Shown piece after piece: positions 1 to 54,338 of a stretch of 64,000 bases of DNA (its first letter is position 1; every line of letters begins with the position of its first letter). A program made the translations under genes and the position numbers. The notes below the pieces were generated by a model. That model was not told the DNA's origin. It made no database searches and was given only the letters and a program-made list of their open reading frames with translations. Origin of the DNA: a virus; IMG/VR virus record IMGVR_UViG_3300028299_000003, positions 12,632-76,631 of that record, one strand, 5' to 3'.

Positions 1-6
1 AAATAG

Positions 7-95
7 TAGTCCTAGAGGGATTCGAACCCCCGTTACCAAGAAAACCTTGGCGTCCTTATCCACTTTAAAGTGGAGTTCCGTTAGACGATAGGACC
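7..95 (-). ncRNA. non-canonical tRNA-Glu-like RNA with D-loop hairpin insert and 5-nt anticodon loop
   Basis: GGTCCTA/TAGGACT acceptor, TTCGAAT T-loop, Glu-like D-stem; insert TCCACT-TTAA-AGTGGA after GG; CCAAG-GTTTT-CTTGG anticodon arm. Confidence 0.75.
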
Positions 96-101
96 GTTTT
101 G

Positions 102-188
102 TAGCCCCTGTGGGACTCGAACCTCACATTCCTAGGACAATACCTAGGGTCCTGCACATCGGACGATGATCCGTTAGACGAAAGGGCC
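102..188 (-). ncRNA. non-canonical tRNA-Glu-like RNA with D-loop hairpin insert and 6-nt anticodon loop
   Basis: GGCCCTT/AGGGGCT acceptor, TTCGAGT T-loop, insert CATCG-TC-CGATG, CTAGG-TATTGT-CCTAG arm. Confidence 0.7.
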
Positions 189-288
189 ATTTTATTTTCG
201 ACTTATTTTTTTCAGTATCTCAAAGAACAAAAACAAAGGTACATTGTTTTTTTGACAAAACAAAATTTTTCTTTGTTTTTTTTTTATG

Positions 289-362
289 TCACCCGTAGGG
301 GATTCGAACCCCTGATTTCAAGGATGAAAACCTTGCGTCCTAGACCGACTAGACGAACGGGC
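289..362 (-). tRNA. tRNA-Glu(TTC)
   Basis: Cloverleaf; anticodon arm CAAGG-TTTTCAT-CCTTG. Confidence 0.92.
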
Positions 363-370
363 GTATTTTG

Positions 371-524
371 TAGTCCTAGGGGGATTCGAGCCCCCATGAC
401 CAAGAAAACCTTGGCGTCCTTATCACACAATCTGGATTTGAACCATAATTCCTCTATTCTATTATATAAGAGGGTGTTTCCTTTTGTTACACTATTTGTG
501 TGAGTTCCGTTTAGACGATAGGAC
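371..524 (-). ncRNA. tRNA-Glu-like RNA with a second degenerate tRNA (423-503) nested in its D-loop
   Basis: Outer body nearly identical to 7-95; the 81-nt insert has its own acceptor, D, anticodon and T arms. Confidence 0.7.
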
Positions 525-591
525 CTGAAATCATATATAAGATGATTTCGTATTTTTAATATTTTCAAATTTTCAATGAACGATTACAATA

Positions 592-623
592 CAAAGATAA
601 GAATTATTCTGATACTATACAAA
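592..623 (-). promoter_or_regulatory. Bacteroidota-type promoter for the Glu cluster
   Basis: TTTG (620-623), 20-nt spacer, TATCTTTG (592-599). Confidence 0.7.
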
Positions 624-649
624 TTTTTCTTGGATAAAATAAAAAAAAT

Positions 650-1545
650 GGAATGAGACTACTTCCACTTCTGACTGATACCTTCATTGTATTATCCCTT
701 TGACTCCCATCAGAGGGTTCTCAATTTGTCCACATCCACCAGGGATGTCTATCAGCGACGCTGCCGTTTTATAGTTGGTGACTCAACTTTTACCATCAAT
801 CATATTCAACTTTCCGAATACCCTCTGCTTTCGGGGCAGTTCGTGGCCGCTAGACCACTAGGTGCATCTTTCAATCAAATTCATCCGTCTTGGGAACTTC
901 AGAACTCTCGGTTCACCCGTAGGTGCTAAGAATTAAGCGACTTTCAGATTGATGTTGAGTGGGCCTTTCCATTTGATAACAAAATGCAGGAATTGAACCT
1001 ACGTTTTTTATTTAAGCGATAAATGCCTTACCACTAGGCAAATTTTGTTAGTCCACCAAGAAGTGCCCACTCAGCTGTTCTATATCCTTTTGAGATATAA
1101 AATTCAACACTTCTCATGCGTTTCGGGCTACCGACCCTACTGTGCGGTTCTTCAAGAATCCTGACCCCTCGTTCTACCAAGGAATCATTCACCTCTGGAA
1201 CTATTAGATAGCCATCACGTTGGTCTGCTTTGACAGTCTAATCACTCCTTATCCAATCAGATGTATCAATCGGCTGACGAATGGCGTTGGGTGTCACCCC
1301 ATATTAGAGAAGCTCCTTACCCATTGCCGTGACAATGGGGGCTTACCTCTCGTATTCTTCCCACAGAACCATAACCGATTTTCCACCTTAGTTCCACCGA
1401 AGTGAAACCCGCCACTGGGATGCGTTAGGATGAAGTTTGCTTGGATGAACTACCCGAAAGTAGCAGGAGATTGTGAACATTTACTCCTCTTTTACACCTT
1501 ACGATGTATTATCCTTTATCCCCCGAAGGGGAAAACTTCCCAAAC
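650..1545 (-). ncRNA. large structured RNA, GOLLD-like (ends approximate)
   Basis: ~900-nt GC-enriched stretch with no credible ORF, many hairpins (TTCG, GAAA, GTAA loops), own promoter, next to tRNAs, contains a tRNA. Confidence 0.65.
978..1048 (-). tRNA. degenerate tRNA embedded in the large RNA (anticodon position CTT, Lys)
   Basis: ACAAAAT/ATTTTGT acceptor, GCCT-AGTGGTA-AGGC D arm, TTTAT-CGCTTAA-ATAAA, GTAGG-TTCAATT-CCTGC; G instead of U33. Confidence 0.7.
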
Positions 1546-1602
1546 AAAGTTAATTTTTTTACAATAAATATAAGAACATTTTTTAATTTCAAATTCGTTT
1601 TA

Positions 1603-1633
1603 CAAAGATACGAAGATTTTTTATATCGGCAAA
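1603..1633 (-). promoter_or_regulatory. Bacteroidota-type promoter for the large RNA
   Basis: TTTG (1630-1633), 19-nt spacer, TATCTTTG (1603-1610). Confidence 0.7.
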
Positions 1634-1782
1634 ATTTATTTTTGTTTATTTTTCCCCTAGATCAATTTTATAGTTATTATCAGGTGGTCCCGTTACAATA
1701 GTAACCTTGAACATTCTACCATCAACATTTCTTTTAATCATAAGATAAACCTTTTCTATATCAATATCATTTTTTCTACCAC

Positions 1783-1824
1783 CAAAGAAAAACAACTACA
1801 TCTTTAGTGTAGTTTGATGAATTT
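1783..1824 (+). mobile_element. solo left-end hairpin of the IS200/IS605-family element
   Basis: CAAAGAAAAACAACTACATCTTTAGTGTAGTTTGATGAATTT matches the tnpB element left end at 54338. Confidence 0.8.
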
Positions 1825-1936
1825 AATATGATTTAATAAATCTAATCCGTTCATTTTTTCAAAATTTTAGAATTTAATTTCTAACTGATCATTTTCCTCA
1901 TCTTCATTTATCTCCGAATTATCAAAATCAATTTTG

Positions 1937-2024
1937 TGCTCCAGATAGGATTCGAACCTATAAGCCTCATTATGGCGGTGATTCCTGAGACCACTGTGTT
2001 TACCTTGGTTTTCACCACTGGAGC
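1937..2024 (-). tRNA. tRNA-Leu(CAG)
   Basis: GTGGT-CTCAGGA-ATCAC, long variable arm. Confidence 0.9.
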
Positions 2025-2031
2025 TAATTTT

Positions 2032-2244
2032 TTATTTCTTTCTTTCCCTTCTTTCTTTCTTTTCAATTTTTTCAACTTTCTCAACCTTCTCCTTATTTGA
2101 TTCGGATTGTTTTCTCCATTCCTTCCAATCTTTTTTATTTGAGTAAATCCAATCAAAACCCAAAAGTCTTTTGATTTCTTTATAATCATCAATAGATTTA
2201 TCACTTACTCTTTTAAATTCATCGTTTCTTTTTAGTGTTTTCAT
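2032..2244 (-). CDS. hypothetical basic protein
   Basis: ORF co-oriented with neighbours. Confidence 0.5.
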   Translation of the reverse strand: MKTLKRNDEFKRVSDKSIDDYKEIKRLLGFDWIYSNKKDWKEWRKQSESNKEKVEKVEKIEKKERRERKK

Positions 2245-2250
2245 ATTTTT

Positions 2251-2676
2251 TTAATGTTTAATTATTTTTGAAAAATTATAATATATATTATCCTCTAGAA
2301 ATTTTTTTAATTTCTTATCAATATCTTTTTCTAGTTTATTTCTTTTCTTATCTAGTTTTTTAGATTCAGACTTGTTCATAGTCTTTTTTATAATATCCAT
2401 ATCTCTAATTTCACCCGTTTCATCTTGTATTTCTTTTAATTTATTATAAAATTCATAGTATTTATTCTTTTGAAAAAATACAAAAAATACTTCCATTGAG
2501 TATCTTAATCTTCTTACCGATATTCGAATTTCATGTAGTGTATCTTCATTAGGATTTTTTAAATAATCTTCTATATTATTTTTTATAGTCTTTAATCTAA
2601 ATTTTAAAGATTTTTTAGAAAATTCATTAGAGTTTTTTTCATTGTCAATTATCCATTTTTTTAATTTATTCATCAA
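2251..2676 (-). CDS. CHAD domain protein
   Basis: LHEIRISVRRLRY and LKEIQDETGEIRDMD motifs. Confidence 0.8.
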   Translation of the reverse strand: MMNKLKKWIIDNEKNSNEFSKKSLKFRLKTIKNNIEDYLKNPNEDTLHEIRISVRRLRYSMEVFFVFFQKNKYYEFYNKLKEIQDETGEIRDMDIIKKTMNKSESKKLDKKRNKLEKDIDKKLKKFLEDNIYYNFSKIIKH

Positions 2677-2811
2677 TCCATTAGTTTAATTATATCGTTA
2701 CTTTTCTTAAAAATCATATGTATCCCAAATATTCTTATTACAAATCCCTTCATATGTTTGAATTTTCTAAAATAGAAAAACCAAAATCTACTTTTGTAAA
2801 ATTTTATGTAT

Positions 2812-3120
2812 TTAGTGTGTACTATCATATTTTTCTAAACATTCCATTTTGAACCAAGGCCATTTACCCCTTAACATTACCATATACCCATCATATAGAA
2901 TTTTTGTTTTGCGGTGACCATCCATTGTTATTTTATAGGAATGTTCTATTTTTTCAATTTTTCCTGGATTATTATTTGTAGCTGTATATTTTGACCATTT
3001 TCCACAAGAACTATCCCACCAAGAATATTCTTCATTTATCACAACTCTATCACCAATATCAAAAGGAAGTTCATCATATTCCTCCCATTCAAAATCATCA
3101 AAATTAATATTTTCAATCAT
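2812..3120 (-). CDS. hypothetical protein with acidic N-terminus
   Basis: FDDFEWEE acidic leader as in other small ORFs; FDIGDRV. Confidence 0.55.
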   Translation of the reverse strand: MIENINFDDFEWEEYDELPFDIGDRVVINEEYSWWDSSCGKWSKYTATNNNPGKIEKIEHSYKITMDGHRKTKILYDGYMVMLRGKWPWFKMECLEKYDSTH

Positions 3121-3160
3121 TTTTAAATATAATTGATAATTTAATAAATAAGAAATTTTA

Positions 3161-3376
3161 TTACCACCTTACTACTTTATAATTGTGACCCTTACTATTA
3201 ACCATCTTACCTTCTGATTCTAGAATTTTAGTTATACTTTTTATAATAGAATTACTTAGTTCAGCGGTTTCCCAGTAATAATGAAATTCACCTTTTTTCG
3301 CGGATTTCAAAATTTCTCTTTTTAATACTTTCAGTATCTCAGCTTCCTGTCTTACTCTTTCTTCTACTACAGTCAT
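3161..3376 (-). CDS. hypothetical protein
   Basis: ORF track. Confidence 0.55.
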   Translation of the reverse strand: MTVVEERVRQEAEILKVLKREILKSAKKGEFHYYWETAELSNSIIKSITKILESEGKMVNSKGHNYKVVRW

Positions 3377-3453
3377 GGCTTTTTAATTTTTTATAAATTA
3401 ATATAATTGGTTCAAAATACAATTTAATAGATTTAACTATTTCCTTTTTCATT

Positions 3454-3762
3454 CTAATTTTCATTTTCTTTTTTTCCTTTCTTACATATAGGACATACTA
3501 CAACTTGTTGTAAGGTTATGGAATCTATATCTACAATAATATAACCTTTATTATTACAATTTGCACATCTAAATTTGTTATATTTACACATAACAATATT
3601 CATTTCTTCTTTATAACTAGGAATGTGTCTATTATCACATGCTCTGTCACCAATCATACCAAATCCAAAACATTTTTTAACATCATTTTTAGATAGAGTA
3701 CACACTCTACAAATTCCATTAATTCGTTCTTCTTGGGTATGAGGTTTCATTTCATTCATCAA
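3454..3762 (-). CDS. Cys-rich zinc-finger protein
   Basis: Several CxxC pairs. Confidence 0.55.
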   Translation of the reverse strand: MMNEMKPHTQEERINGICRVCTLSKNDVKKCFGFGMIGDRACDNRHIPSYKEEMNIVMCKYNKFRCANCNNKGYIIVDIDSITLQQVVVCPICKKGKKENEN

Positions 3763-4525
3763 TATATTTTTTTAACTTTTCAAATTCATTTTCAACAAAT
3801 TCATTATTCTCTCTACCCATATCCTTTATTACATATGGAATATATCCACAGTTTTTAATTTCTTTTATTTTAATTCTATCTCTATTTTTCACTTGTTTAA
3901 TTGAATGTTTTTCTTTTATTTTTTCATAATGCCATTTTCCATTCCACAATATCGCTATTTTATAATCTTCTATTATTATATCAGCGTCCCATCCATTAAA
4001 AATTGATTCATTAGTTTTAATATTATTAAAATATTCTTTACATAATTCAGAAAAATATATTTCATTTTTACTTCTTCTATTCTGATTTAGAACTGAGGCT
4101 CTACCACCCTTTATTGCTTTATCTATATTATTTTTATTTGAATATGTTATAGAACACTTGTTAGAACAAAAAATTCTATTTTCAGTTATTCTATGCTCAA
4201 ATATTTTATTACAATATTTACAAATTGTACTTATTCTTTTAATATGATTTCTACCAATCAATGACTCACTTTTCTTTTTCTTATCATCATCATCCCAATC
4301 TCTACTATTGGCACAACTTCTAGAACAATAATATTTTTCTTTTTTAGGAAAAAGTTTTTCTCTTTCCTCTATTTCAAATTCCTTTTTACAATTATTACAA
4401 GTAACTATAAATTTTTTGAATTCACCATACTTTTTATTAACATATCCACCTTGGTGTATATTTTGACAAGAAGTATTACAATATTTATTTTTTACAGGTT
4501 TTCCACAATTTAAACATTTATTCAT
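3752..4525 (-). CDS. putative homing endonuclease (Zn fingers plus PD-(D/E)XK/Vsr-like domain)
   Basis: YCSRSC/FCSNKC repeats; WDADII..IAILWNGKWHY..RDRIK. Confidence 0.7.
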   Translation of the reverse strand: MNKCLNCGKPVKNKYCNTSCQNIHQGGYVNKKYGEFKKFIVTCNNCKKEFEIEEREKLFPKKEKYYCSRSCANSRDWDDDDKKKKSESLIGRNHIKRISTICKYCNKIFEHRITENRIFCSNKCSITYSNKNNIDKAIKGGRASVLNQNRRSKNEIYFSELCKEYFNNIKTNESIFNGWDADIIIEDYKIAILWNGKWHYEKIKEKHSIKQVKNRDRIKIKEIKNCGYIPYVIKDMGRENNEFVENEFEKLKKYIDE

Positions 4526-4593
4526 TTTATAATAGTTTTTATTTCTATATATAAAATTATAAAAACGGAAAGTTGTATTGAACCTTTTTATAT

Positions 4594-4665
4594 TGTGCGG
4601 ATGTCAGATTCGAACTGATTCTCAAGATTATGAGTCTCGTATGTTAACCATTACACCACACCGCG
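4594..4665 (-). tRNA. tRNA-Met(CAT), initiator-like
   Basis: CGAGA-CTCATAA-TCTTG; C1:A72 mismatch. Confidence 0.85.
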
Positions 4666-4760
4666 TGTTTTTTACATTAGAATTTTATTAATTTCTAATG
4701 GTATAAATTTAATTGAAAATTAATTAGTTTCCAAAATTTAATTGTTCTTTTTTACATGTG

Positions 4761-5059
4761 CGGCCCGTGTAGGATTCGAACCTACGACCAACAGATTACA
4801 CATTATCCATAATTTTCATTACGGGGTGGACTATATCATCATCTCTACTGAGATGTCGGACGCTATTAAAGGTTTATTGATTGATTTTCTCACCTTTTAG
4901 TCTCTGCACCTTCCCAAATACTCTTATAATCTTCTCTGGGCTTGGATCAGGATTGCCATATTAAAGGTTTCCCTGAGTTCATCCGATTTTCCATATGTGG
5001 TCACCCACATACGCTGCAATCTTTACAGTCTGCTGCTCTACCAGCTGAGCTAACGAGCC
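4761..5059 (-). tRNA. tRNA-Asn(GTT) split by a group I intron
   Basis: Exons 5059-5025 and 4798-4761 join to GCAGA-CTGTTAA-TCTGT. Confidence 0.88.
4799..5024 (-). ncRNA. group I intron (IC3-like), no ORF
   Basis: 5' exon ends in U, intron ends in G; P1 CTGT/GCAG; core AATCCTGATCCAAGC, GCAGAGACT, GATATAGTCC. Confidence 0.9.
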
Positions 5060-5079
5060 ATTATTTCAAAGAACAATTG

Positions 5080-5152
5080 TGACCTTGGCGAGAATCGAAC
5101 TCACATCTAAAATTCCGCAAATTTTTATTCTAATCCGTTGAACTACAAGGCC
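5080..5152 (-). tRNA. tRNA-Arg(GCG)
   Basis: AAAAT-TTGCGGA-ATTTT. Confidence 0.85.
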
Positions 5153-5162
5153 CTGTTTATTG

Positions 5163-5235
5163 TATCCACTCTAGGACTCGAACCCAGACCTAATTATTCG
5201 AAGTAACTAATGCTAATCCGTTACACCAAGTGGAC
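5163..5235 (-). tRNA. tRNA-Arg(TCG)
   Basis: AGTTA-CTTCGAA-TAATT. Confidence 0.88.
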
Positions 5236-5239
5236 ATTG

Positions 5240-5314
5240 CGGTGACGACCAGATTTGAACTGGCGATCTCCTGAGTGACAGTCAGGAATGTTAGGCCATC
5301 TACACCACGTCACC
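5240..5314 (-). tRNA. tRNA-Asp(GTC)
   Basis: CCTGA-CTGTCAC-TCAGG. Confidence 0.92.
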
Positions 5315-5710
5315 TTATTTTAACCATTTTCTTATTGCGTTATCACTTACACCATATTTTCTTCCTGTTCCTTTATATCCAAGTTCTTCAATATCTTTTA
5401 ATAGTGTTTCTTTATCAGGTCTTTCTACTTTTCTTTGTTTTAAATCTGCACATTTTTTACATCTTTTTGATTGTCTATCTTTTTTGTTGCCACATTTACA
5501 ATAATAATTTCCATTATAGAATCCATAATTATTTTTTATATTTTTTGCACCATGTGTGTCTAAAGTTACATTACAATTTGGACAAACAATTCTTAAATTT
5601 TCTAATCTATTATCATCATTTATACCATTAATATGATCCAATACAAATATTAATTTTTTCCCCATCCATTCTTCATCTTGACCACAAATTTCACATTTTT
5701 TTTCTTTCAA
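5315..5710 (-). pseudogene. HNH homing endonuclease, probably N-terminally truncated
   Basis: LDHINGINDDNRLENLRIVCPNC; paralog of 6412-7086 lacking its N-terminal part. Confidence 0.7.
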
Positions 5711-5840
5711 TCCTTCATAGAATTCTTAACAATATTAGTAAAATGATTTTCTTCATATCTATTTTGCATATTCTTTTTTATTTGTATATTAAAATCTGAA
5801 TACCAAAAACTGTCAATTAAATCAAAGAACGTCTTTTTTG

Positions 5841-5917
5841 TTGGGAAGGTGGGATTTGAACCCACATGTGACCAGTTACCGTTTCAACACTTTATAAGAG
5901 TGAGCGGATACATCCCA
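5841..5917 (-). tRNA. rewired tRNA-like RNA, anticodon TAT (Ile)
   Basis: Acceptor and T arm normal; CACT-CTTATAA-AGTG comes before a D-loop-like TAACTGGT. Confidence 0.8.
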
Positions 5918-5961
5918 GTTTTTATATTGTTAGTGTGAGTGGATACGATGAATTGAATTTG

Positions 5962-6038
5962 TCGGATTGGGTGGGGTCGAACCACCATGTAACCAATTAA
6001 CCTTTCAACTGCTTATCAGGCAGAGGGTTTACAATCCG
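5962..6038 (-). tRNA. rewired tRNA-like RNA, anticodon GAT (Ile)
   Basis: Same architecture as 5841-5917 with covarying stems; CTGC-CTGATAA-GCAG. Confidence 0.8.
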
Positions 6039-6044
6039 TTTTGT

Positions 6045-6080
6045 TAGAGAATCACTCTAACCAATTGAGCTACACACCCG
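6045..6080 (-). pseudogene. 5' half of a canonical tRNA
   Basis: GGGTGTGTAGCTCAATTGGTTAGAGTG acceptor strand plus D arm, no contiguous 3' half. Confidence 0.65.
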
Positions 6081-6084
6081 TTTG

Positions 6085-6167
6085 TGACCGAAGTGGGAAT
6101 CGAACCCACATGAGCTTAGCTCAAAGGTTTTTAAGACCTTCGCGTCTGCCAGTTCCGCCATTCAGCC
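6085..6167 (-). tRNA. tRNA-Leu(TAA)
   Basis: AAGGT-CTTAAAA-ACCTT, long variable arm. Confidence 0.92.
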
Positions 6168-6249
6168 AATTTTATTTCAATACGTCAAAGAACCATTTTA
6201 CAAATTTACAAAATTATTTCCACATTTCCAACTTTTCAACAAATTTTTG

Positions 6250-6326
6250 CGGTCCCAAAGGGATTCGAACCCTTCTGTTATTCCTCCGTGACAGGGAGGT
6301 AGCCACACCCAGCAACTCCTGAGACC
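6250..6326 (-). tRNA. tRNA-Asp(GTC), atypical D arm
   Basis: CCTCC-CTGTCAC-GGAGG; G at position 8. Confidence 0.8.
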
Positions 6327-6338
6327 AATCAATTTTTG

Positions 6339-6421
6339 TGACCAAGGTGGGACTCGAACCCACAAGTTCTGTGAACGATAGGTTCTAAACCTATTATGTT
6401 TTCCAATTTCATCACTTGGCC
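6339..6421 (-). tRNA. tRNA-Leu(TAG)
   Basis: ATAGG-TTTAGAA-CCTAT. Confidence 0.9.
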
Positions 6422-7086
6422 TTCTCGTAATTTTTTTTCCATTTTCTTATACTATTATCACTCACTCCGTATTTTCTTCCTGTTCCTCTATATCCAAATT
6501 CTTTTATTTCTTTTAATAATTTATCATAAGATGGTCTTTTTACTTTTCTTTGTTTTAATTTTGAACAATCCATACAATATTTACTATTTTCTTGTTTTTT
6601 ATTTCCACACTCACATTTCTGTTGTGGATTTTTATTTATTTTTGATTTTTGATTTAAACTCTTACAATATGTATTTGTTTGAGCGTGACAATTTGGACAA
6701 AGTATTTGAATATTATTAAATTCATTATTAAATCTATTGCCATCTATATGATGAATTTCTAATGGTGCATCTTTATTATTCCATTCGGTAAGATTACAAA
6801 TTTCACATTTTTTTTCTTTATATCCATCCATTATTAATTTTTTTCTCAGTGTGTTGCTACTTATTAATGACCCGTTAAATAAATATTTAGAAACATGTTT
6901 TCTATTATTTGATATTTTTTTACCCTTTAATCCCATATTGCCATTATATTCAATATTCATTTTTTTCAAATATCCATTTAATGTTGATTGTCTACATATA
7001 AGTTCTTTACAAATGAAAGATTTTGGTTGATTATCATTTATCCATTCTAATATCTCTTCTTTTTTTTCTAATATATCTTTTCTCAT
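6412..7086 (-). CDS. HNH homing endonuclease (likely start MRKDILE)
   Basis: LEIHHIDGNRFNNEFNNIQILCPNCH; C-terminal HTH-like GRKYGVSDNSIRKW. Confidence 0.85.
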   Translation of the reverse strand: MRKDILEKKEEILEWINDNQPKSFICKELICRQSTLNGYLKKMNIEYNGNMGLKGKKISNNRKHVSKYLFNGSLISSNTLRKKLIMDGYKEKKCEICNLTEWNNKDAPLEIHHIDGNRFNNEFNNIQILCPNCHAQTNTYCKSLNQKSKINKNPQQKCECGNKKQENSKYCMDCSKLKQRKVKRPSYDKLLKEIKEFGYRGTGRKYGVSDNSIRKWKKNYEKAK

Positions 7087-7190
7087 CTTTTTTTTTATTT
7101 TATATATTAAAAATAAAAAGTCAAAAATGGTAAACACCATAATTATTTTTATAATATGTATATTATTTTAATTATTTCAAAGAACTTATG

Positions 7191-7267
7191 TACCGATGGC
7201 TGGATTCGAACCAGCGACGTGTAGTGATTATGATTCACTTGCGATAGCCAACTCCGCCCACATCGGT
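7191..7267 (-). tRNA. tRNA with CAT anticodon (elongator Met or Ile2)
   Basis: AGTGA-ATCATAA-TCACT. Confidence 0.85.
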
Positions 7268-7274
7268 GTGTTTG

Positions 7275-7356
7275 TGGTCAAGGTGGGAATCGAACCCACA
7301 AGTTTTGAAACAATAGGTTTTGAGTCTATCGCGTTTACCAATTTCGCCACTTGACC
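7275..7356 (-). tRNA. tRNA-Leu(CAA)
   Basis: ATAGA-CTCAAAA-CCTAT. Confidence 0.9.
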
Positions 7357-7359
7357 GTG

Positions 7360-7441
7360 TGACTGAGGAGGGAATCGAACCCACAAGGATTTCTCCAATA
7401 GTTCCTTAAACTATCGCGTCTGCCTGTTTCGCCACTCAGCC
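7360..7441 (-). tRNA. tRNA-Leu(AAG)
   Basis: ATAGT-TTAAGGA-ACTAT, long variable arm. Confidence 0.88.
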
Positions 7442-7450
7442 GAATTTTTG

Positions 7451-7532
7451 TGAGAGGGGTAGGATTCGAACCTACAAGTCCCGAAGGAAACGGGGTTACA
7501 GCCCGCCGAGCCACCAGCTGCTCAACCCTCCC
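7451..7532 (-). tRNA. tRNA-Tyr(GTA)
   Basis: GCGGG-CTGTAAC-CCCGT, long variable arm. Confidence 0.9.
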
Positions 7533-7548
7533 AATTTATTCCAAGATG

Positions 7549-7557
7549 TCAAAGAAC
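7549..7557 (-). promoter_or_regulatory. boxA-like antitermination site (also at 220, 5066, 5822, 6185, 7177)
   Basis: GTTCTTTGA repeated in tRNA spacers. Confidence 0.7.
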
Positions 7558-7560
7558 TTT

Positions 7561-7595
7561 ACAAAAACAAAAAACCCAATCTTTTGGATTGGGTT
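7561..7595 (-). terminator. intrinsic terminator of the tRNA operon attenuator
   Basis: AACCCAATC-caaaa-GATTGGGTT followed by TTTTGTTTTT. Confidence 0.85.
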
Positions 7596-7619
7596 CGGAT
7601 TACTTCAAGTTATAAAAAC

Positions 7620-7709
7620 TCATCGTAGCAATACAAACCCATCATCCATATCTAGATATAAATCTATATTATAGAGATTAATAATGTTCATATTTGAATT
7701 TCGTGTCAT
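7620..7709 (-). CDS. attenuator leader peptide MTRNSNMNIINLYNIDLYLDMDDGFVLLR
   Basis: 29 codons, absent from ORF track; 24 encode amino acids served by the downstream tRNAs; overlaps the antiterminator strand. Confidence 0.8.
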   Translation of the reverse strand: MTRNSNMNIINLYNIDLYLDMDDGFVLLR

Positions 7710-7785
7710 TGAATTTTTTTTATTTTGTTTTTGTAATGTATATATAGTATTTAAAAAAGTTTATTTTTTTCCATTTTTAATAATA

Positions 7786-7793
7786 CAAAGATA
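7786..7793 (-). promoter_or_regulatory. Bacteroidota -7 element upstream of leader and tRNA operon
   Basis: cgTATCTTTGta; a TATATA motif also lies near 7739-7746. Confidence 0.65.
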
Positions 7794-7804
7794 CGGAGAT
7801 TTTT

Positions 7805-8128
7805 TTAATATACCAAATCTTTTTTGATGATTTTATCAATTTCTTCTTTATTTTCATCATAATTTTCTTGTTTCAAGGTATGAACTACATCCCCTTCTTT
7901 TAGATTATCCAATTCATCACCAGTTGGATTTATGATAGCTATTTGTAATCCATCATTATGAATAATAACTCTTTTGAATGGGTGTAATTGAGCTAACTCT
8001 CCCTTTAAATCCACAACTATTCCATGGTCCTTTGGTATCATTATTCCCAACGCGGTCGCGAATAATAGAGCACCCACCAACCAATCTCTACTATTATCTG
8101 GATTAGTTTCATTATTTGTATATTCCAT
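7805..8128 (-). CDS. hypothetical protein
   Basis: ORF track. Confidence 0.55.
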   Translation of the reverse strand: MEYTNNETNPDNSRDWLVGALLFATALGIMIPKDHGIVVDLKGELAQLHPFKRVIIHNDGLQIAIINPTGDELDNLKEGDVVHTLKQENYDENKEEIDKIIKKDLVY

Positions 8129-8197
8129 AATATCTATTATTTTTCAAATATATAAAAAAATTTTGATAAAGTTTAATTAAGAATGTTTTTCATATTT

Positions 8198-8593
8198 TTA
8201 TTGAAGATTATCAGATAAATAATCTTTTAATTTATTAAACTCTAGTCTTCCAGAATTTAAAGATAAAACATCCCAACTATCTTGTTTTATCGGAATTAAT
8301 CTAGAAAAACCTTCTTCATCAACTATACCAAGATCAAATCCTTTTATTAATTGTTCTAATTTATCGGTACTTTTACCATCCACATATATCCAGGGATACG
8401 GTAATCCATATTCTTTATGACCCCAACATGATTGAGTAGTTATAATTCCATTATAATTTAAAAGGACCACCAATTCCCTTATTCCACTATCTATTTTTTT
8501 CCCCAACCCATCAGTAATATTTCTAGAATTATATTCCATTCTTTTATATTTTTCATCATCAAAATCTATATCGGAAAATTTTTTTATTTTCAT
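8198..8593 (-). CDS. hypothetical phage protein (TxxSCxGH motif)
   Basis: IDSGIRELVVLLN..TTQSCWGH; MKIKKF leader. Confidence 0.6.
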   Translation of the reverse strand: MKIKKFSDIDFDDEKYKRMEYNSRNITDGLGKKIDSGIRELVVLLNYNGIITTQSCWGHKEYGLPYPWIYVDGKSTDKLEQLIKGFDLGIVDEEGFSRLIPIKQDSWDVLSLNSGRLEFNKLKDYLSDNLQ

Positions 8594-8602
8594 TATTTCA
8601 TA

Positions 8603-8925
8603 TTATTTTGTTACACCTTCGTTAGTTTTCATTTCCCATATACTTTCACCATCATCATCATACATTGGAATGAACATTAAATGATCCCACCAGGGTCTTT
8701 TTTTTCTTTTTTTGGGTTTTGATTTTGGTTCATCCTCTTCTTCCAAAGTATTATCAAAATCAAAAGAAACCTCATCATCAGAATCATCCTCTTCTTCTAT
8801 AACATCCTGATCCATCTCCGAAAAATATCATCAAAGTCATCTTTATCAAAAGTCTTAAATCTCCTAGGTTCAGGTGGTGGTTGTGGATATGGTACTGTAT
8901 AACCTTCAAATTTTTTTATTTTCAT
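8603..8925 (-). CDS. acidic protein with apparent 1-nt frameshift near 8821-8825
   Basis: MKIKKFEGYTVPYPQPPPEP.. from 8925 joins ORF 8603-8815 if one T is added to a T5 run. Confidence 0.55.
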
Positions 8926-8926
8926 A

Positions 8927-9349
8927 TTAATAAGTTATAAATTTATTTAAGAATGTTATAACACCATTTTTTACAGTAACAATATCAACCCAATTATATT
9001 TTCTTTTATCTTTTATTTCTAAGTCCAAATTCAGTGGTGTTGATGATTTTATAACAATATATTCACTACTATCTAATGTTCTATGTATTGAAAATGTTTT
9101 ATCACTCTCTTTTATTTCAACTGATATAAATTTCCATAAAGATGAAGATATTTGAGGATATAATTCACCCATCACTTCTTTATTTATTTGAGTGACTTCC
9201 ATTATTTTAACCTCTGTTTCTTTCTGTTTTACTTTAACTAATTCCTCATTTTCCTTATTTTCAATCCAGGTTTTAATCTTGGAAAAATTCTCAGTTAAAT
9301 AAAGTTGAAAATATTTACTTTTTATAATATCTGGTATAGAATTTATCAT
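8927..9349 (-). CDS. hypothetical protein
   Basis: ORF track. Confidence 0.55.
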   Translation of the reverse strand: MINSIPDIIKSKYFQLYLTENFSKIKTWIENKENEELVKVKQKETEVKIMEVTQINKEVMGELYPQISSSLWKFISVEIKESDKTFSIHRTLDSSEYIVIKSSTPLNLDLEIKDKRKYNWVDIVTVKNGVITFLNKFITY

Positions 9350-9402
9350 TAAGGATTTTTTATTTTATTGTATATATTAAAATAAAAAATCCTTCTTTTT
9401 AG

Positions 9403-9654
9403 TTACATGTAAATACTATTAATTATTTTATATAATTTTTCATCCCTAAATTCTAATATTTTTAAATGTATCGCACGCCTTATTAAGTAAACAAACATAA
9501 ATGGTTTAGCACCTAAAAAAATTGTTAATTTTATTTTCTTTTTTTTATCTATATTATAAAAAGAATACATAACATTATCCATAGATAAATAAGTCCATTT
9601 CAACTTACCATCTAGTGTATAATCAACAATTCTGTCTAATATCAAATCATCCAT
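9403..9654 (-). CDS. hypothetical protein resembling 18502 and 18843 ORFs
   Basis: IVDYTLDGKLKW vs IIKYTESGKLVW and LIEDTDDGSMKW. Confidence 0.55.
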   Translation of the reverse strand: MDDLILDRIVDYTLDGKLKWTYLSMDNVMYSFYNIDKKKKIKLTIFLGAKPFMFVYLIRRAIHLKILEFRDEKLYKIINSIYM

Positions 9655-9914
9655 TAATAAATCAAATCAGTGAGCCTATAATCTTCTATTTCACCACGTT
9701 CGTTTTCACATTTAGCTCTTCGTTTACCATTTTTATCGGTATAAATTTCACGAATTGTTACTCTGTAGAAAGTCGTCTCATTATCTGTAAATATTCTACA
9801 TCTACTTCCAATTTTTAATTCATTAACCAATCTTCTAATAGTGATTTTATCACTTATTACTAAAATTGAAATTATAATTAAAAGACAAATTAAAATTACT
9901 AAAAATATTATCAT
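9654..9914 (-). CDS. small membrane-anchored protein
   Basis: N-terminal hydrophobic helix. Confidence 0.55.
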   Translation of the reverse strand: MIIFLVILICLLIIISILVISDKITIRRLVNELKIGSRCRIFTDNETTFYRVTIREIYTDKNGKRRAKCENERGEIEDYRLTDLIY

Positions 9915-10834
9915 AATTTACGGTTTTTAATTTCTTTATCCATTTCTTTTTTTACTTTATATACTAAAGAGTGGCTAAACCCAGTAGTTTTTATTATATC
10001 CTTAACATTTTTATCATTTATAAATAATTTATGAATTATTGAATATTTATCTGATTTCATAATTCTATTATCTATTATTCTATCCCATTTTCTATTCATT
10101 ATTGGAAGATTGAGAGATTTTGCTTTATTTTTTATTTTTTCTAATGTTTTAAATTTAAATATTCTAATCGTAGAACAACCACCTGTTGATAATTTAAAAC
10201 ATTTTTCTTCATCTGTCAAAATTTTATAGAATTCTTCTAATATTTTTTTCCAATTTTTATCACACTTAATTTCTATAGATTTACCATTTTTACATATAGA
10301 CCCATCTCCATCAATGAAACCTATAATTAAACTAAATATTTGATCTTTTCCTAGATTTGGAATTGTTGGAATATTTTTTGTTTTATTGGTTTTCCAATTA
10401 AATATTTCTTTTAATTCTATTACTGTTTGTTTATCACATAATGTATATCTAACAGAATTTAATTTATCAACATAAGATGGTTTTAAATTTATACCCAAGT
10501 GCTTTTCTATTTTATTAAAATGTTCTTCATCTTTTTTACTTATATTTACTTGAAAATAACAATTCTTAGATAGATGACCATCAGCAAGTAAAAAACCAAT
10601 CCAATAACAAGTAATATTATCATTTAAATTTAATAGTTTTATTAAATTTCTTTTACTCTCATAAAATTCTCTTTTTATTCCAAAAAGATGTGCCATTTTT
10701 TGTATATAATTCCAAGATAAATTTAAATCGTTTTTTATATCTTTATTGCTTTTTTTAGAATAATTTTCTAACAAATACTCTTTTAAATATTCATTTCTTT
10801 CTGTGTTTAAATTTCTTATTTTATAATTAGTCAT
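9911..10834 (-). CDS. LAGLIDADG homing endonuclease
   Basis: YWIGFLLADG and LIIGFIDGDG. Confidence 0.88.
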   Translation of the reverse strand: MTNYKIRNLNTERNEYLKEYLLENYSKKSNKDIKNDLNLSWNYIQKMAHLFGIKREFYESKRNLIKLLNLNDNITCYWIGFLLADGHLSKNCYFQVNISKKDEEHFNKIEKHLGINLKPSYVDKLNSVRYTLCDKQTVIELKEIFNWKTNKTKNIPTIPNLGKDQIFSLIIGFIDGDGSICKNGKSIEIKCDKNWKKILEEFYKILTDEEKCFKLSTGGCSTIRIFKFKTLEKIKNKAKSLNLPIMNRKWDRIIDNRIMKSDKYSIIHKLFINDKNVKDIIKTTGFSHSLVYKVKKEMDKEIKNRKL

Positions 10835-10854
10835 AATACATAATTTCTTTTACC

Positions 10855-11292
10855 TTATATATTAAAATTATAATCATCTTTTATTCTTCTTTTTTCCTCT
10901 TCATAAATAATTGAATTTTTTTTATCATATTCTCTTTTTCCACGAGACAACGCGATTTCTAGTTTACACTTTCCTTTTTCGTTTATAAATATCATAGTTG
11001 GAACAATAGTTAATCCCTTTTCATTTATCTGAGATTCAAAATGTTCTAATTGTTTTTTAGTTAATAATAATTTTTTATCTCTCTTTGGATCATGTTCAGA
11101 ACCTTTACCATATTCACTAATATGAAGGTTTTTTACAAACATCTCACCATCTTTAAAAAAACAGTAAGTGTCAGTAAATCCAACATTATTCAAACTGATT
11201 GATTTTATTTCAGAACCTTTCAGTACAATTCCACAAATTTCCTTTTCTAGAAATTCAAAATTGAAGTGTGCTTTTTTGTTTTTTATTTTCAT
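10855..11292 (-). CDS. smpB: SsrA-binding protein SmpB
   Basis: NKKAHFNF, GIVLKGSEIKS, RDKKLLL, GKREYDKK. Confidence 0.95.
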   Translation of the reverse strand: MKIKNKKAHFNFEFLEKEICGIVLKGSEIKSISLNNVGFTDTYCFFKDGEMFVKNLHISEYGKGSEHDPKRDKKLLLTKKQLEHFESQINEKGLTIVPTMIFINEKGKCKLEIALSRGKREYDKKNSIIYEEEKRRIKDDYNFNI

Positions 11293-11585
11293 CTGTATCT
11301 AAGTTTCATTGTTGGTAATAGTGGTCCTACGAAAGAATCATAATCATATTTTCTAAATCTATCTGGTGCTAATCTGTCCTTGTTGACACATACCACTTTA
11401 ACATATTTTTTTATATAAGTATCTATCACATTCATTTCATCCGCGTTCATATTGAATTTCTCATCAACTTCATTTCTAATTCTTTCAACTATATCACTTG
11501 GTCTTGTTGATGGTATAATTCTTCTAAGACCCTTTATCGGATATTCAAATATTATATACTCTTTTATTTTTTCTATTTTTCTCAT
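11289..11585 (-). CDS. hypothetical protein
   Basis: ORF track, KEYII similar to neighbour. Confidence 0.5.
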   Translation of the reverse strand: MRKIEKIKEYIIFEYPIKGLRRIIPSTRPSDIVERIRNEVDEKFNMNADEMNVIDTYIKKYVKVVCVNKDRLAPDRFRKYDYDSFVGPLLPTMKLRYR

Positions 11586-11586
11586 A

Positions 11587-11967
11587 TTAGTTTTTATTAT
11601 ACCATTTCATATCAAAAATTTTATTATTTGTTTTAATAGATAATTTGGAATCAAATGATGGAATACATTTTGATAAATATTTCATTATAAATACTTTAAT
11701 TTTTTCATACTCATTACTATTTTTTTTAACATCAAAACGATCAACTTCTTTTAACATCGTCATCAATATTTTCTTTTCAATATCCAAATCAAAATATTTT
11801 TCATAATCCTCAATTTTTTGTTCAATATTATCATAACCAATATCATCTATCAATTGATTTACACCATGTTTAAATAACGTTCTTATCTTCCATTGTGGAT
11901 ATGAAGAAATTATATATTCTTTTATTTCATTAACATTCATTTGGAACATTTTTATAAAAATAATCAT
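11587..11967 (-). CDS. hypothetical protein
   Basis: ORF track. Confidence 0.5.
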   Translation of the reverse strand: MIIFIKMFQMNVNEIKEYIISSYPQWKIRTLFKHGVNQLIDDIGYDNIEQKIEDYEKYFDLDIEKKILMTMLKEVDRFDVKKNSNEYEKIKVFIMKYLSKCIPSFDSKLSIKTNNKIFDMKWYNKN

Positions 11968-12038
11968 TTTTTTTTAAAATAAAAAATATTTCAAGGGTGT
12001 ATCAATTTTTATATATAGGATAAAATAAACCCACGGAA

Positions 12039-53044: not shown

Positions 53045-54338
53045 ATGAACTACTACTACACTGAAGATGTAGTAGTTTCTACGTCACAAGCACAATGTAT
53101 CCATTCACTTTGAGTGACGCTGGGTTGGTTCCTCAACCCTATTTTCTTTATATTTATAGCAGCATTTATATCCCTATCGTGTTTTTCATTACACTTAGGA
53201 CAAATCCATTCTCTATCATTTAAAGTCAAATCCTTATTGATTGATCCACATTTAGAGCAAGTTTTTGATGATGGTTCAAATCGTCCAATAATAGATAAAT
53301 TTTTTCCATACCAATCACACTTATATTCAATCATAGATTTAAATTCAGACCAGCCCATATCACTTATTGCTCTTGCTAATTTATGATTTTTAACCATATT
53401 TGATACGGCTAAATCTTCAACACATATAGTATCATAATTATCAACAAGATATTTACTGATTTTATGTAAATAATCCTGTCTTTGATTGCGGATATGTTCG
53501 TGTAGCAAAGCAACAACCATTTTTTGTTTTTGATAATGATTTGATTTTTTATCCTTTCTTGCTAAGGATCGCTGCTCAATCCTTAATTTACTCATAGCAG
53601 ATTTAAAGAAATCTTTGTTCTCGAATTTCTTTCCATCTGAAGTTATACAAAAATCTTTTATACCTAAATCCAAACCAACCGTAGTTTGATCCATAATAGG
53701 TTTCTTTTTAGGTTTTAATTCACCAGTATCAACTAGTATAGACACATAGTATTTGTTTGTTATTGTTCGTGATACGGTAACGGTTTTAATTAAACCTTTA
53801 AATTCTCTGTGTAAATCAATACCAACCAATTTTAATTTAGGTATGAAGATTTGTTTATCATTTTCTAAATATACTCCCTGAGGTAATTGAAATGATTGTT
53901 TTCCGAACTTTCTTTTAAACTTGGGAAAACCACCACCTCTAAAAAAGTTTGTGTAAGCATTATCCAGATTTCTTAAACTCATTTGTAATGCCTGCGAAGG
54001 ACTTTCTTTTAACCAAGGCGCGTCTGTATCCTTTAATTCTTTAACCTGATTAGCCAAATCAATACAGGTATAGTTCTTTTTATGTCCTATGTAGGCACTA
54101 ATTTTAGTTTCTAATCCAAGGTTATAGACAAATCTAACCTGACCAAAAATATGGGACATCATATCTTTTTGTTCCTGATTGGGGTATATCCTATATTTAA
54201 ATGATTTTAGCATCTTTTACAAAAAACTTTTTTGATTTGTAAGTATATATAATTAAAAATATATCACTTTTTTCCATTTTTAAAAGTGTTAGGTGTCAAA
54301 TTCATCAAACTACACTAAAGATGTAGTTGTTTTCTTTG
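53045..54338 (-). mobile_element. IS200/IS605 family, IS1341-type element (tnpB only)
   Basis: Subterminal hairpins at both ends; TCGT target 5' of left end; right end TTCAT; no duplication; no tnpA. Confidence 0.9.
53056..54213 (-). CDS. tnpB: RNA-guided endonuclease TnpB
   Basis: FKYRIYP, GLDLG, VEDL, CSKC..CPKC, DRDINAA; RuvC D-E-D intact. Confidence 0.95.
   Translation of the reverse strand: MLKSFKYRIYPNQEQKDMMSHIFGQVRFVYNLGLETKISAYIGHKKNYTCIDLANQVKELKDTDAPWLKESPSQALQMSLRNLDNAYTNFFRGGGFPKFKRKFGKQSFQLPQGVYLENDKQIFIPKLKLVGIDLHREFKGLIKTVTVSRTITNKYYVSILVDTGELKPKKKPIMDQTTVGLDLGIKDFCITSDGKKFENKDFFKSAMSKLRIEQRSLARKDKKSNHYQKQKMVVALLHEHIRNQRQDYLHKISKYLVDNYDTICVEDLAVSNMVKNHKLARAISDMGWSEFKSMIEYKCDWYGKNLSIIGRFEPSSKTCSKCGSINKDLTLNDREWICPKCNEKHDRDINAAINIKKIGLRNQPSVTQSEWIHCACDVETTTSSV

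Follow-up and report, generated by a model that had tools for sequence, protein, structure and literature searches.

The window analysed here, 64,000 nucleotides of IMG/VR virus record IMGVR_UViG_3300028299_000003, carries on its minus strand an array of phage tRNA genes headed by a short open reading frame (ORF) and an intrinsic terminator. A ribosome-mediated leader-peptide transcription attenuator probably gates this array, as judged from the sequence of the unit, from models of its folding and from related units in other huge phages. The codons of the short ORF are largely those read by the tRNAs behind the terminator, and the position of a translating ribosome is predicted to set the choice between terminator and antiterminator. 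An earlier note, drawn up from the letters of the window alone, had proposed such an attenuator. Its reading is supported, with corrections to the promoter, to the list of antiterminating codons and to the assertion that the leader senses "exactly" the tRNAs encoded downstream. The whole analysis is computational and concerns the anatomy of the unit, its alternative structures and the covariation of leaders with arrays; from these we infer leader translation, ribosome-polymerase coupling, regulated read-through and the physiological trigger. The parts of the unit are, in the order of transcription:

7738-7780, minus strand: promoter-like module with an A-rich box AAAATGGAAAAAA, ACTTTTT and a TATATATA box.
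7620-7709, minus strand: leader ORF of 29 codons, with ATG start and TGA stop.
7641-7703, minus strand: regulatory codon run, codons 3-23, all served by the array except Ser5.
7670-7702, minus strand: segment 1, the 5' half of the ORF, paired with segment 2 in the minimum-free-energy fold of the untranslated RNA.
7615-7650, minus strand: segment 2, the 3' end of the ORF including its stop codon, with 7648-7634 as the predicted antiterminator 5' arm.
7586-7611, minus strand: segment 3, the predicted antiterminator 3' arm, which contains the terminator 5' arm (7596-7587).
7561-7581, minus strand: segment 4, the terminator 3' arm (7581-7572) and U tract (7571-7561).
7535-7557, minus strand: conserved motif GTTCTTTGACATCTTGGAATAAA, between the terminator and tRNA-Tyr.
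4595-7532, minus strand: tRNA array behind the terminator, detected with ARAGORN and Rfam.

The leader ORF has the position and length given to it in the earlier note. As also stated there, 24 of its 29 codons specify Met, Arg, Asn, Ile, Leu, Tyr or Asp, and the correspondence does reach the codon level, all 23 amino-acid-matched codons after the start being readable by anticodons of the array. Leucine is spelled CTC, TTA and CTA within codons 3-23, and TTG at codon 27. The ORF tops the 269 small ATG-started ORFs of the record in its content of the seven amino acids (0.83 versus 0.50 +/- 0.10), and measured against the small-ORF background its enrichment (23 of the 28 codons after the start) has a binomial P of 3e-5. 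Taken alone, this match is only suggestive, because the array boundary was picked after the fact. No Shine-Dalgarno sequence precedes the leader ATG, nor is there one at any of the 51 larger ORFs of the window. Its lack at the leader is therefore normal, since no gene of the phage uses one. Most ATGs of the window have instead a T-run and a TATATA box some 17-22 nt upstream, which is probably this phage's general promoter and short-leader style.

One lake metatranscriptome run yielded a 182-nt contig that spans 7757-7576 and ends within the terminator stem, while DNA contigs reach 7537 and 7531. The RNA contig comes from one study, available as contigs only, at low depth, with DNA carry-over possible and its 5' end at a repeat, and it is not counted as evidence.

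The intrinsic terminator announced between leader and array is likewise present. Its stem (7596-7587 with 7581-7572) and U tract, which runs to 7561, have a computed energy of -12.9 kcal/mol, place it among the few strongest canonical terminators in the 76.6-kb record, and end 29 nt upstream of tRNA-Tyr. Folding predicts three helices, namely segment 1 (7702-7670) with segment 2 (7650-7615), segment 2 (7648-7617) with segment 3 (7611-7586), and segment 3 (7596-7587) with segment 4 (7581-7572). The pairing of 7647-7634 with 7597-7586 suggested in the earlier note is the outer part of the longer hairpin formed by segments 2 and 3. When 7650-7572 is folded, this antiterminator form beats the forced terminator form by 4.3 kcal/mol, and the whole leader folds better than its shuffles (z = -4.1). 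In the untranslated RNA segment 1 may act as an anti-antiterminator.

In a thermodynamic and admittedly crude model in which a 30-nt ribosome footprint is masked at each codon in turn, ribosome position sets terminator versus antiterminator. The predicted probability of the terminator is 0.00-0.13 for most A-site positions at codons 2-19, rising to at most 0.52 at three codons, and 0.96-0.97 once the A site has reached codon 20 or any later one, the stop included; the ribosome-free RNA gives 0.68. This dependence on ribosome position was lost in each of 150 dinucleotide-shuffled versions of the upstream part. A second model, which replaced full-equilibrium folding and considers only the RNA made before the terminator 3' arm, gives a terminator 5' arm that is sequestered to 78-97% for codons 2-18 versus 6-22% for codons 20-29. 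The claim that stalling on any of the listed codons would free the antiterminator thus fares well in these models for codons 2 to about 19, but codons 20-29, which include Met21, Asp22-23, Leu27-28 and Arg29, favour termination, a ribosome there masking the antiterminator arm. As modelled, the geometry would be that of a classical attenuator.

The same arrangement recurs in related huge phages. Scanning metagenomes with the terminator pattern produced 18 loci, of which one (L015) is related, and scanning viral contigs with the antiterminator/terminator pattern led to L025, part of a 211-kb phage record (G001) with 74 tRNA matches and several arrays. In four sequences, L015, G001, LR756501.1 and LR756511.1, there are 10 homologous or analogous units of leader, terminator and array. 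The array heads of G001 were inspected regardless of content, and four of the five have the promoter module, a small ORF and a terminator. L015 and array A of G001 share the architecture of the window unit; their 24-codon leaders are related to each other and appear, from their translations, to differ by in-frame changes. The core of segment 2, GGGTTTG (Gly-Phe-Val), is present in both in the same frame. LR756501.1 has four units, one of them homologous to that of array C of G001. Between array types, the peptide sequences are not conserved. The arrays and their leaders include:

G001 array A: three Asp, four Gly, two Cys, Arg TCT and Met tRNAs; leader GMDCGRDD.
G001 array B: four Glu, Arg, Pro, Thr, Ala and Val tRNAs; leader rich in P, R, E, T, V and A.
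G001 array C: His, Phe, Ser, five Lys and Trp tRNAs; leader KHSKHFSSSSKWF.
G001 array E: Tyr and seven Leu tRNAs; leader run LYYLYLYLY, with codons CTA, TTG, TTA and CTC.
LR756501.1, Leu-only array: leader with 7 Leu, all six Leu codons and no Tyr.
LR756501.1, Met/Gln/Ile/Glu array: leader rich in M, Q, I and E.
LR756501.1, Arg/Thr/Val/Ala/Gly/Pro array: leader rich in T, P, A, V, R and G.
LR756511.1 (595 kb; 42% G+C at the locus): leader ORF that starts with GTG and abounds in Ser, Leu and Tyr, with a very strong terminator after it.
LR756511.1, array behind that terminator: four Ser, five Leu and two Tyr tRNAs.

An intrinsic terminator stands between the leader ORF and the tRNAs in all of the related units. 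With the window included, 10 of 11 leaders have the same predicted switch geometry, the terminator 5' arm being sequestered with the ribosome on early or middle codons and freed over the last 8-12. In nine of the 11, the 3' third of the ORF complements the terminator 5' arm (matched by at most 9 of 200 shuffles). The homologous leaders of G001 array C and of the first LR756501.1 unit show a compensatory difference, with UAUCGGGG/CCCCGAUA in one and UUCGGGG/CCCCGAA in the other.

Covariation of leader codons with array anticodons in related phages had been proposed as a test of the attenuator, and its outcome is clearly positive. The background was taken from 563 small ORFs of these phages; every leader exceeds it in the amino acids that its own array serves, with per-leader binomial P values between 8e-7 and 8e-2. 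Fisher's method combines them to P = 1e-16 over nine leaders, that of the window left out, and to 1e-14 over seven non-redundant ones. Of the 24 permutations by which leaders can be assigned to arrays, the true pairing ranks first in G001 and again in LR756501.1, with off-diagonal scores near zero. Matching extends to the isoacceptors: 128 of 144 matched codons can be read by anticodons of the leader's own array, and leaders tend towards one codon per isoacceptor. It is also frame-specific (50% in the ORF frame versus 25% and 21% in the other two, with the ORF frame highest in 11 of 11 leaders), which excludes base composition as its cause and points to translation of the leader.

The promoter-like module ends about 28 nt upstream of the leader ATG. 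It is found upstream of all 10 ATG-started leaders, in four phage sequences, with an A-rich box, GAC-TTTTT and AATATATAA. The earlier note had placed the promoter at a different box:

7786-7793, minus strand: promoter box TATCTTTG, which fits the Bacteroidota -7 consensus TAnnTTTG.

This box is present, but the other leaders have no conserved counterpart at the equivalent position, and it is not counted in the device; 7780-7738 is the more likely promoter. A further copy of the module, 82% identical, lies at 54283-54236, 70 nt before the ATG of a tnpB gene:

53045-54330, minus strand: TnpB (IS605 OrfB) gene with matching flanking hairpins ACTACA..TGTAGT and the module copy at the same distance from the ATG as at the leader.

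That the shared 50-nt module might be the end of an insertion sequence was ruled out, as the tnpB hairpins lie outside the module and the module precedes all leaders. A second TnpB gene is found in the record outside the window (G000 4739-5944).

A conserved motif lies between terminator and tRNA-Tyr. Variants of it follow nine of the 11 terminators and recur within arrays 6-19 nt before tRNA 5' ends; their core is GTTCTTTGACAT, with forms GTTCTT(T)GACAT.. and GTTCTTTAAAATA.., and they are also found at L015 2445-2472, at L038 6556-6585 and in the arrays of G001 and LR756501.1. The motif may signal processing or a start. A promoter of sigma-70 or Bacteroidota type in the interval from terminator to tRNA-Tyr was considered and ruled out by the spacing.

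The following scheme is proposed. Transcription would start at the module (7780-7738), and a ribosome would load on the leader ORF (7709-7620). Slow decoding in the first two thirds of the ORF, at codons for Asn, Met, Ile, Leu, Tyr and Asp or at Arg-CGA, would make it stall upstream. The stall would leave 7648-7634 free to pair with 7597-7586, the terminator would not form, and the polymerase would enter the tRNA genes. With fast decoding, the ribosome would run on to cover the stop codon and the ORF's 3' end, the terminator would form, and the transcript would end 29 nt before tRNA-Tyr. In sum, the supply of the array's tRNAs would be under negative feedback, and the array might be induced again if tRNAs were lost, for instance to tRNA-cleaving defences of the host. 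As to the input, loss of tRNAs to host nucleases, starvation and plain supply feedback fit the sequence alike.

A more specific version of this scheme can be put forward tentatively, and we would hold it to be somewhat less probable than its negation. According to it, the leader is a multiplexed, isoacceptor-level sensor with about one codon for each tRNA species of the array, slow decoding of any of which would open the array; each phage would then have several independent homeostats for a private tRNA pool, together with a built-in counter-defence trigger. The isoacceptor spelling of the related leaders is compatible with this: all six Leu codons stand before the Leu-only array, four codons for Thr precede the tRNAs Thr CGT/GGT/TGT, and AGG is used ahead of a tRNA-Arg CCT.

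Several findings weigh against attenuation, in whole or in part. Behind the array lie genes for tRNA-Glu, a Lys-like tRNA and tRNA-Leu CAG as well as a tRNA-like gene, with no strong terminator in between, and the leader has no Glu or Lys codons. The read-through form still leaves room for a shifted hairpin of 7 bp (-4.4 kcal/mol) ahead of the U tract. Full-equilibrium folding leaves the stronger terminators of G001 arrays A, B and C mostly formed. Untranslated RNA favours the terminator in the window (0.68), but the antiterminator in most relatives, and because of this a trp-like default-off state is not general. In the simple duplex test for a complement of the 5' arm, G001 array B and LR756511.1 fail. 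Both leader and terminator are absent at array D of G001 (L031) and at the Ile/Asn/Asp array of LR756501.1 (185853-187731). Lastly, the motif after the terminators might provide a second start, even if its distance from the tRNAs suits promoters of neither the sigma-70 nor the Bacteroidota type.

Leaderless arrays of the Ile/Asn/Asp/Gln type stand after a gene for an L7/L12-like protein. Most leaders, for their part, start with Asn, Ile, Gln or Met codons.

Other explanations of the unit can be weighed against the same evidence. Chance, or a by-product of AT-rich, hairpin-forming intergenic DNA that happens to be open, would owe some plausibility to the bias of AT-rich DNA towards Asn, Ile, Tyr, Leu and Asp codons, to the 50% average of random small ORFs in the record and to an array boundary chosen after the fact. 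Yet the ORF ranks first of 269, its match is frame-specific, and GC-richer sets (Gly/Ala/Pro/Thr/Arg, or Ser/Leu/Tyr in the phage with 42% G+C) match their arrays equally; with the combined P reached without the window and the failure of 150 shuffles to yield the switch, chance is already contradicted by the relatives and hardly deserves credence. It is improbable, if less so, that the unit stands by itself, as a small RNA of some 170 nt or the gene of a micro-protein, with the tRNAs made independently from the post-terminator motif or by constitutive leak-through. Such a unit would have its own promoter module and strong terminator, as is found, would fold unusually well, as the leader does, and would leave a role to the motif conserved after the terminators. 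What it leaves unexplained is that leader content tracks the leader's own array, and in the ORF frame only, and that the terminator arm has its complement at the ORF 3' end. A functional micro-protein also sits badly with peptides that are not conserved between array types, and an independent start at the motif would be too near the tRNA 5' ends for a normal promoter.

Two further readings keep part of the attenuator and replace the rest. T-box RNAs sense tRNA via a codon-like specifier, and this textbook precedent, together with the fact that the terminator/antiterminator alternative is real, lends some appeal to a switch that works free of ribosomes, its triplets being read by anticodons in T-box fashion or its state depending on a protein of the phage or the host. 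A permissive Rfam scan of window positions 1-12000 gave no T-box match, and no other Rfam cis-regulatory family matches the leader. Moreover, the triplets lie in one frame, bounded by start and stop codons that keep their placement with respect to the antiterminator arm across 11 leaders, and there are up to 25 different matching triplets in a leader, unlike a single-specifier design; we regard a ribosome-free switch as quite unlikely. Ribosome position can alter RNA decay and processing, and a translated, stalling leader might accordingly act on cleavage or stability of the precursor RNA or on the timing of tRNA processing, for which the motif by the terminator could be the site. U-tract terminators at the same place in every unit, with 5' arms paired with the ORF 3' end, are however the design of termination control, and an output at the level of RNA processing seems very unlikely. 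Ribosome-mediated attenuation of transcription remains the reading that we prefer.

The array itself is broadly as listed in the earlier note, with the reservations that the Asn gene is split by an intron and that the Ile genes are odd and were detected with Rfam only. ARAGORN finds 11 tRNAs between 7532 and 4595 (Tyr GTA, Leu AAG/CAA/TAG/TAA, two Met, two Asp and Arg TCG/GCG). The gene order is Tyr, Leu AAG, Leu CAA, Met, an HNH gene, Leu TAG, Asp and Leu TAA in the first half, followed in the second by two Ile-like genes, another HNH gene, Asp, Arg TCG, Arg GCG, Asn and Met. Unusual members of the array, the homing endonuclease genes and the RNA genes farther downstream are:

4760-5059, minus strand: tRNA-Asn GTT, with a 226-nt group I intron in the anticodon loop (Rfam Intron_gpI, 96 bits).
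5841-5917 and 5962-6038, minus strand: Ile-like tRNA genes TAT and GAT, matched by Rfam only, the D arm absent and the variable arm long.
3752-4525, 5315-5710, 6412-7140 and 9911-10834, minus strand: homing endonuclease genes, three HNH-type and one LAGLIDADG-type.
7-2024, minus strand: further RNA genes, namely tRNA-Leu CAG, GOLLD with a Lys-like tRNA, tRNA-Glu and a tRNA-like gene (95-7).
650-1115, minus strand: GOLLD RNA match downstream of the array (147.4 bits, with a gathering score of 150; E = 6e-40).

A tRNA-Lys(CTT)-like element occupies 977-1049 within GOLLD. The strongest terminator of the record (-19.4 kcal/mol; minus strand, G000 12363) follows closely on the last tRNA-like gene, 268 nt ahead of window position 1, and probably closes a 7.8-kb tRNA/GOLLD unit. 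It is because of these further same-strand tRNAs before the next strong terminator that the word "exactly" overstated the match between the leader and the tRNAs downstream.

Some other features of the array region may be mentioned. The homing endonuclease genes are scattered within and beside the tRNA array, and the HNH ORF 6412-7140 shares 10 nt with tRNA-Leu TAG. A half-tRNA-like 5' piece lies just upstream of the Ile-like genes (about 6075-6040). An intron-bearing tRNA similar to the tRNA-Asn of the window is found at L015 3008-3270, and oversized or insertion-bearing tRNA-like genes occur in L015, G001 and LR756501.1. One contig of a lake metagenome links 7304 back to 6400 with 31 other letters between them, which points to a strain variant or a rearrangement around the HNH gene and tRNA-Met.

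The window belongs to a 76.6-kb record with a CheckV completeness of 11%, its DNA has about 26% G+C, and the public runs in which this DNA is found are lake-water metagenomes. An SbcC-like protein of the window is 45.6% identical, across 85% of its length, to one of LR756501.1, a 735-kb record of an uncultured phage. The largest phage genome of the 2020 huge-phage study by Al-Shayeb et al. was a 735-kb genome of the Mahaphage clade, and Bacteroidetes were predicted as hosts for all giants of that clade (PMC7162821). LR756501.1 is, to judge by its size, probably this genome. The Bacteroidota host assumed in the earlier note is reasonable, because the window phage is related to LR756501.1 and Mahaphage giants are predicted on Bacteroidetes. 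A giant eukaryotic virus was considered for the collagen-like protein, the many glycosyltransferases and DnaJ, and was ruled out by the canonical and bidirectional intrinsic terminators, the GOLLD RNA and the SbcC-like match to LR756501.1. In LR756501.1, two neighbouring tRNAs with a CTA anticodon (amber suppressors; 690585-690738, plus strand) hint at TAG reassignment in part of its genes.

Searches for close relatives of the window were largely negative. Protein P0001 (8128-7805), upstream of the leader, is an orphan among 5.8 billion proteins and has no relative among viral contigs; P0003 has a single relative (47%) in a different context, and a search for relatives of a 1029-aa window protein gave no match. 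Pattern searches with tRNA-Tyr and tRNA-Leu AAG found one unrelated phage only, or nothing, and the exact terminator pattern had no match among viral contigs.

In mechanism, the unit falls into the known class of leader-peptide attenuators. The ilvGMEDA (Ile/Leu/Val), thr (Thr/Ile), trpL, hisL, leuL and pheL systems of enterobacteria also have a short leader rich in regulatory codons, a stop codon at the antiterminator segment and mutually exclusive antiterminator and terminator, and in ilvGMEDA and thr several amino acids are likewise sensed by one leader. The phage leaders differ in covering up to seven amino acids with several synonymous codons each, in lacking a Shine-Dalgarno sequence, in being phage-borne and present as several differently spelled copies per genome, and in that a trp-like pause or anti-antiterminator hairpin is not general. 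Enterobacterial attenuators target biosynthetic enzymes whereas the phage leaders target tRNAs, so that the loop would close on the supply of tRNA and not of amino acid. In E. coli, pheST has a Phe-rich leader attenuator that controls phenylalanyl-tRNA synthetase. Here too attenuation acts on the translation machinery, but on a protein gene and through one amino acid, as opposed to tRNAs and a match to a whole array. T-box riboswitches likewise turn tRNA status into a choice between terminator and antiterminator; they do so free of ribosomes, by binding one uncharged tRNA via a specifier triplet and the acceptor end, whereas the triplets of the phage leaders form a bounded frame. The known targets of attenuators, enzymes of amino-acid biosynthesis and aminoacyl-tRNA synthetases, are not matched here, the genes downstream being tRNAs and homing endonucleases, and tRNA genes are a new target class. 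Full-text searches gave no account of attenuators or leader peptides before phage or any other tRNA genes, in agreement with the earlier note, whose author knew of no described attenuator of a phage tRNA array, and the huge-phage paper makes no mention of them before tRNA genes (PMC7162821).

A physiological parallel is the trn operon of Anabaena sp. PCC 7120, a long tRNA array that is silent and becomes induced under translational stress (PMC8421152, PMC10272220). As is proposed for the phage, an accessory tRNA array is switched on when translation is impaired. The trn operon is controlled at its promoter by a protein repressor, TrcR (PMC10272220), and neither paper mentions a leader peptide, attenuator or terminator for it (PMC8421152, PMC10272220).

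The main proposals for the role of phage tRNAs are codon compensation and making good the tRNAs that host defences destroy (PMC10264068, PMC11555353, PMC11464382). If the attenuator reading is true, these phages would sense how fast each codon is decoded and produce tRNAs as needed, and this decades-old question becomes testable. Leader-peptide attenuation would gain tRNAs as a target and, with them, direct feedback on the very molecule that is sensed. The evidence spans at least five phage sequences and the proposal can therefore be tested on defined, short DNA parts, which could also serve as compact natural sensors of codon-specific translation speed. In huge-phage genomes, the leaders predict which tRNAs form one regulatory unit.

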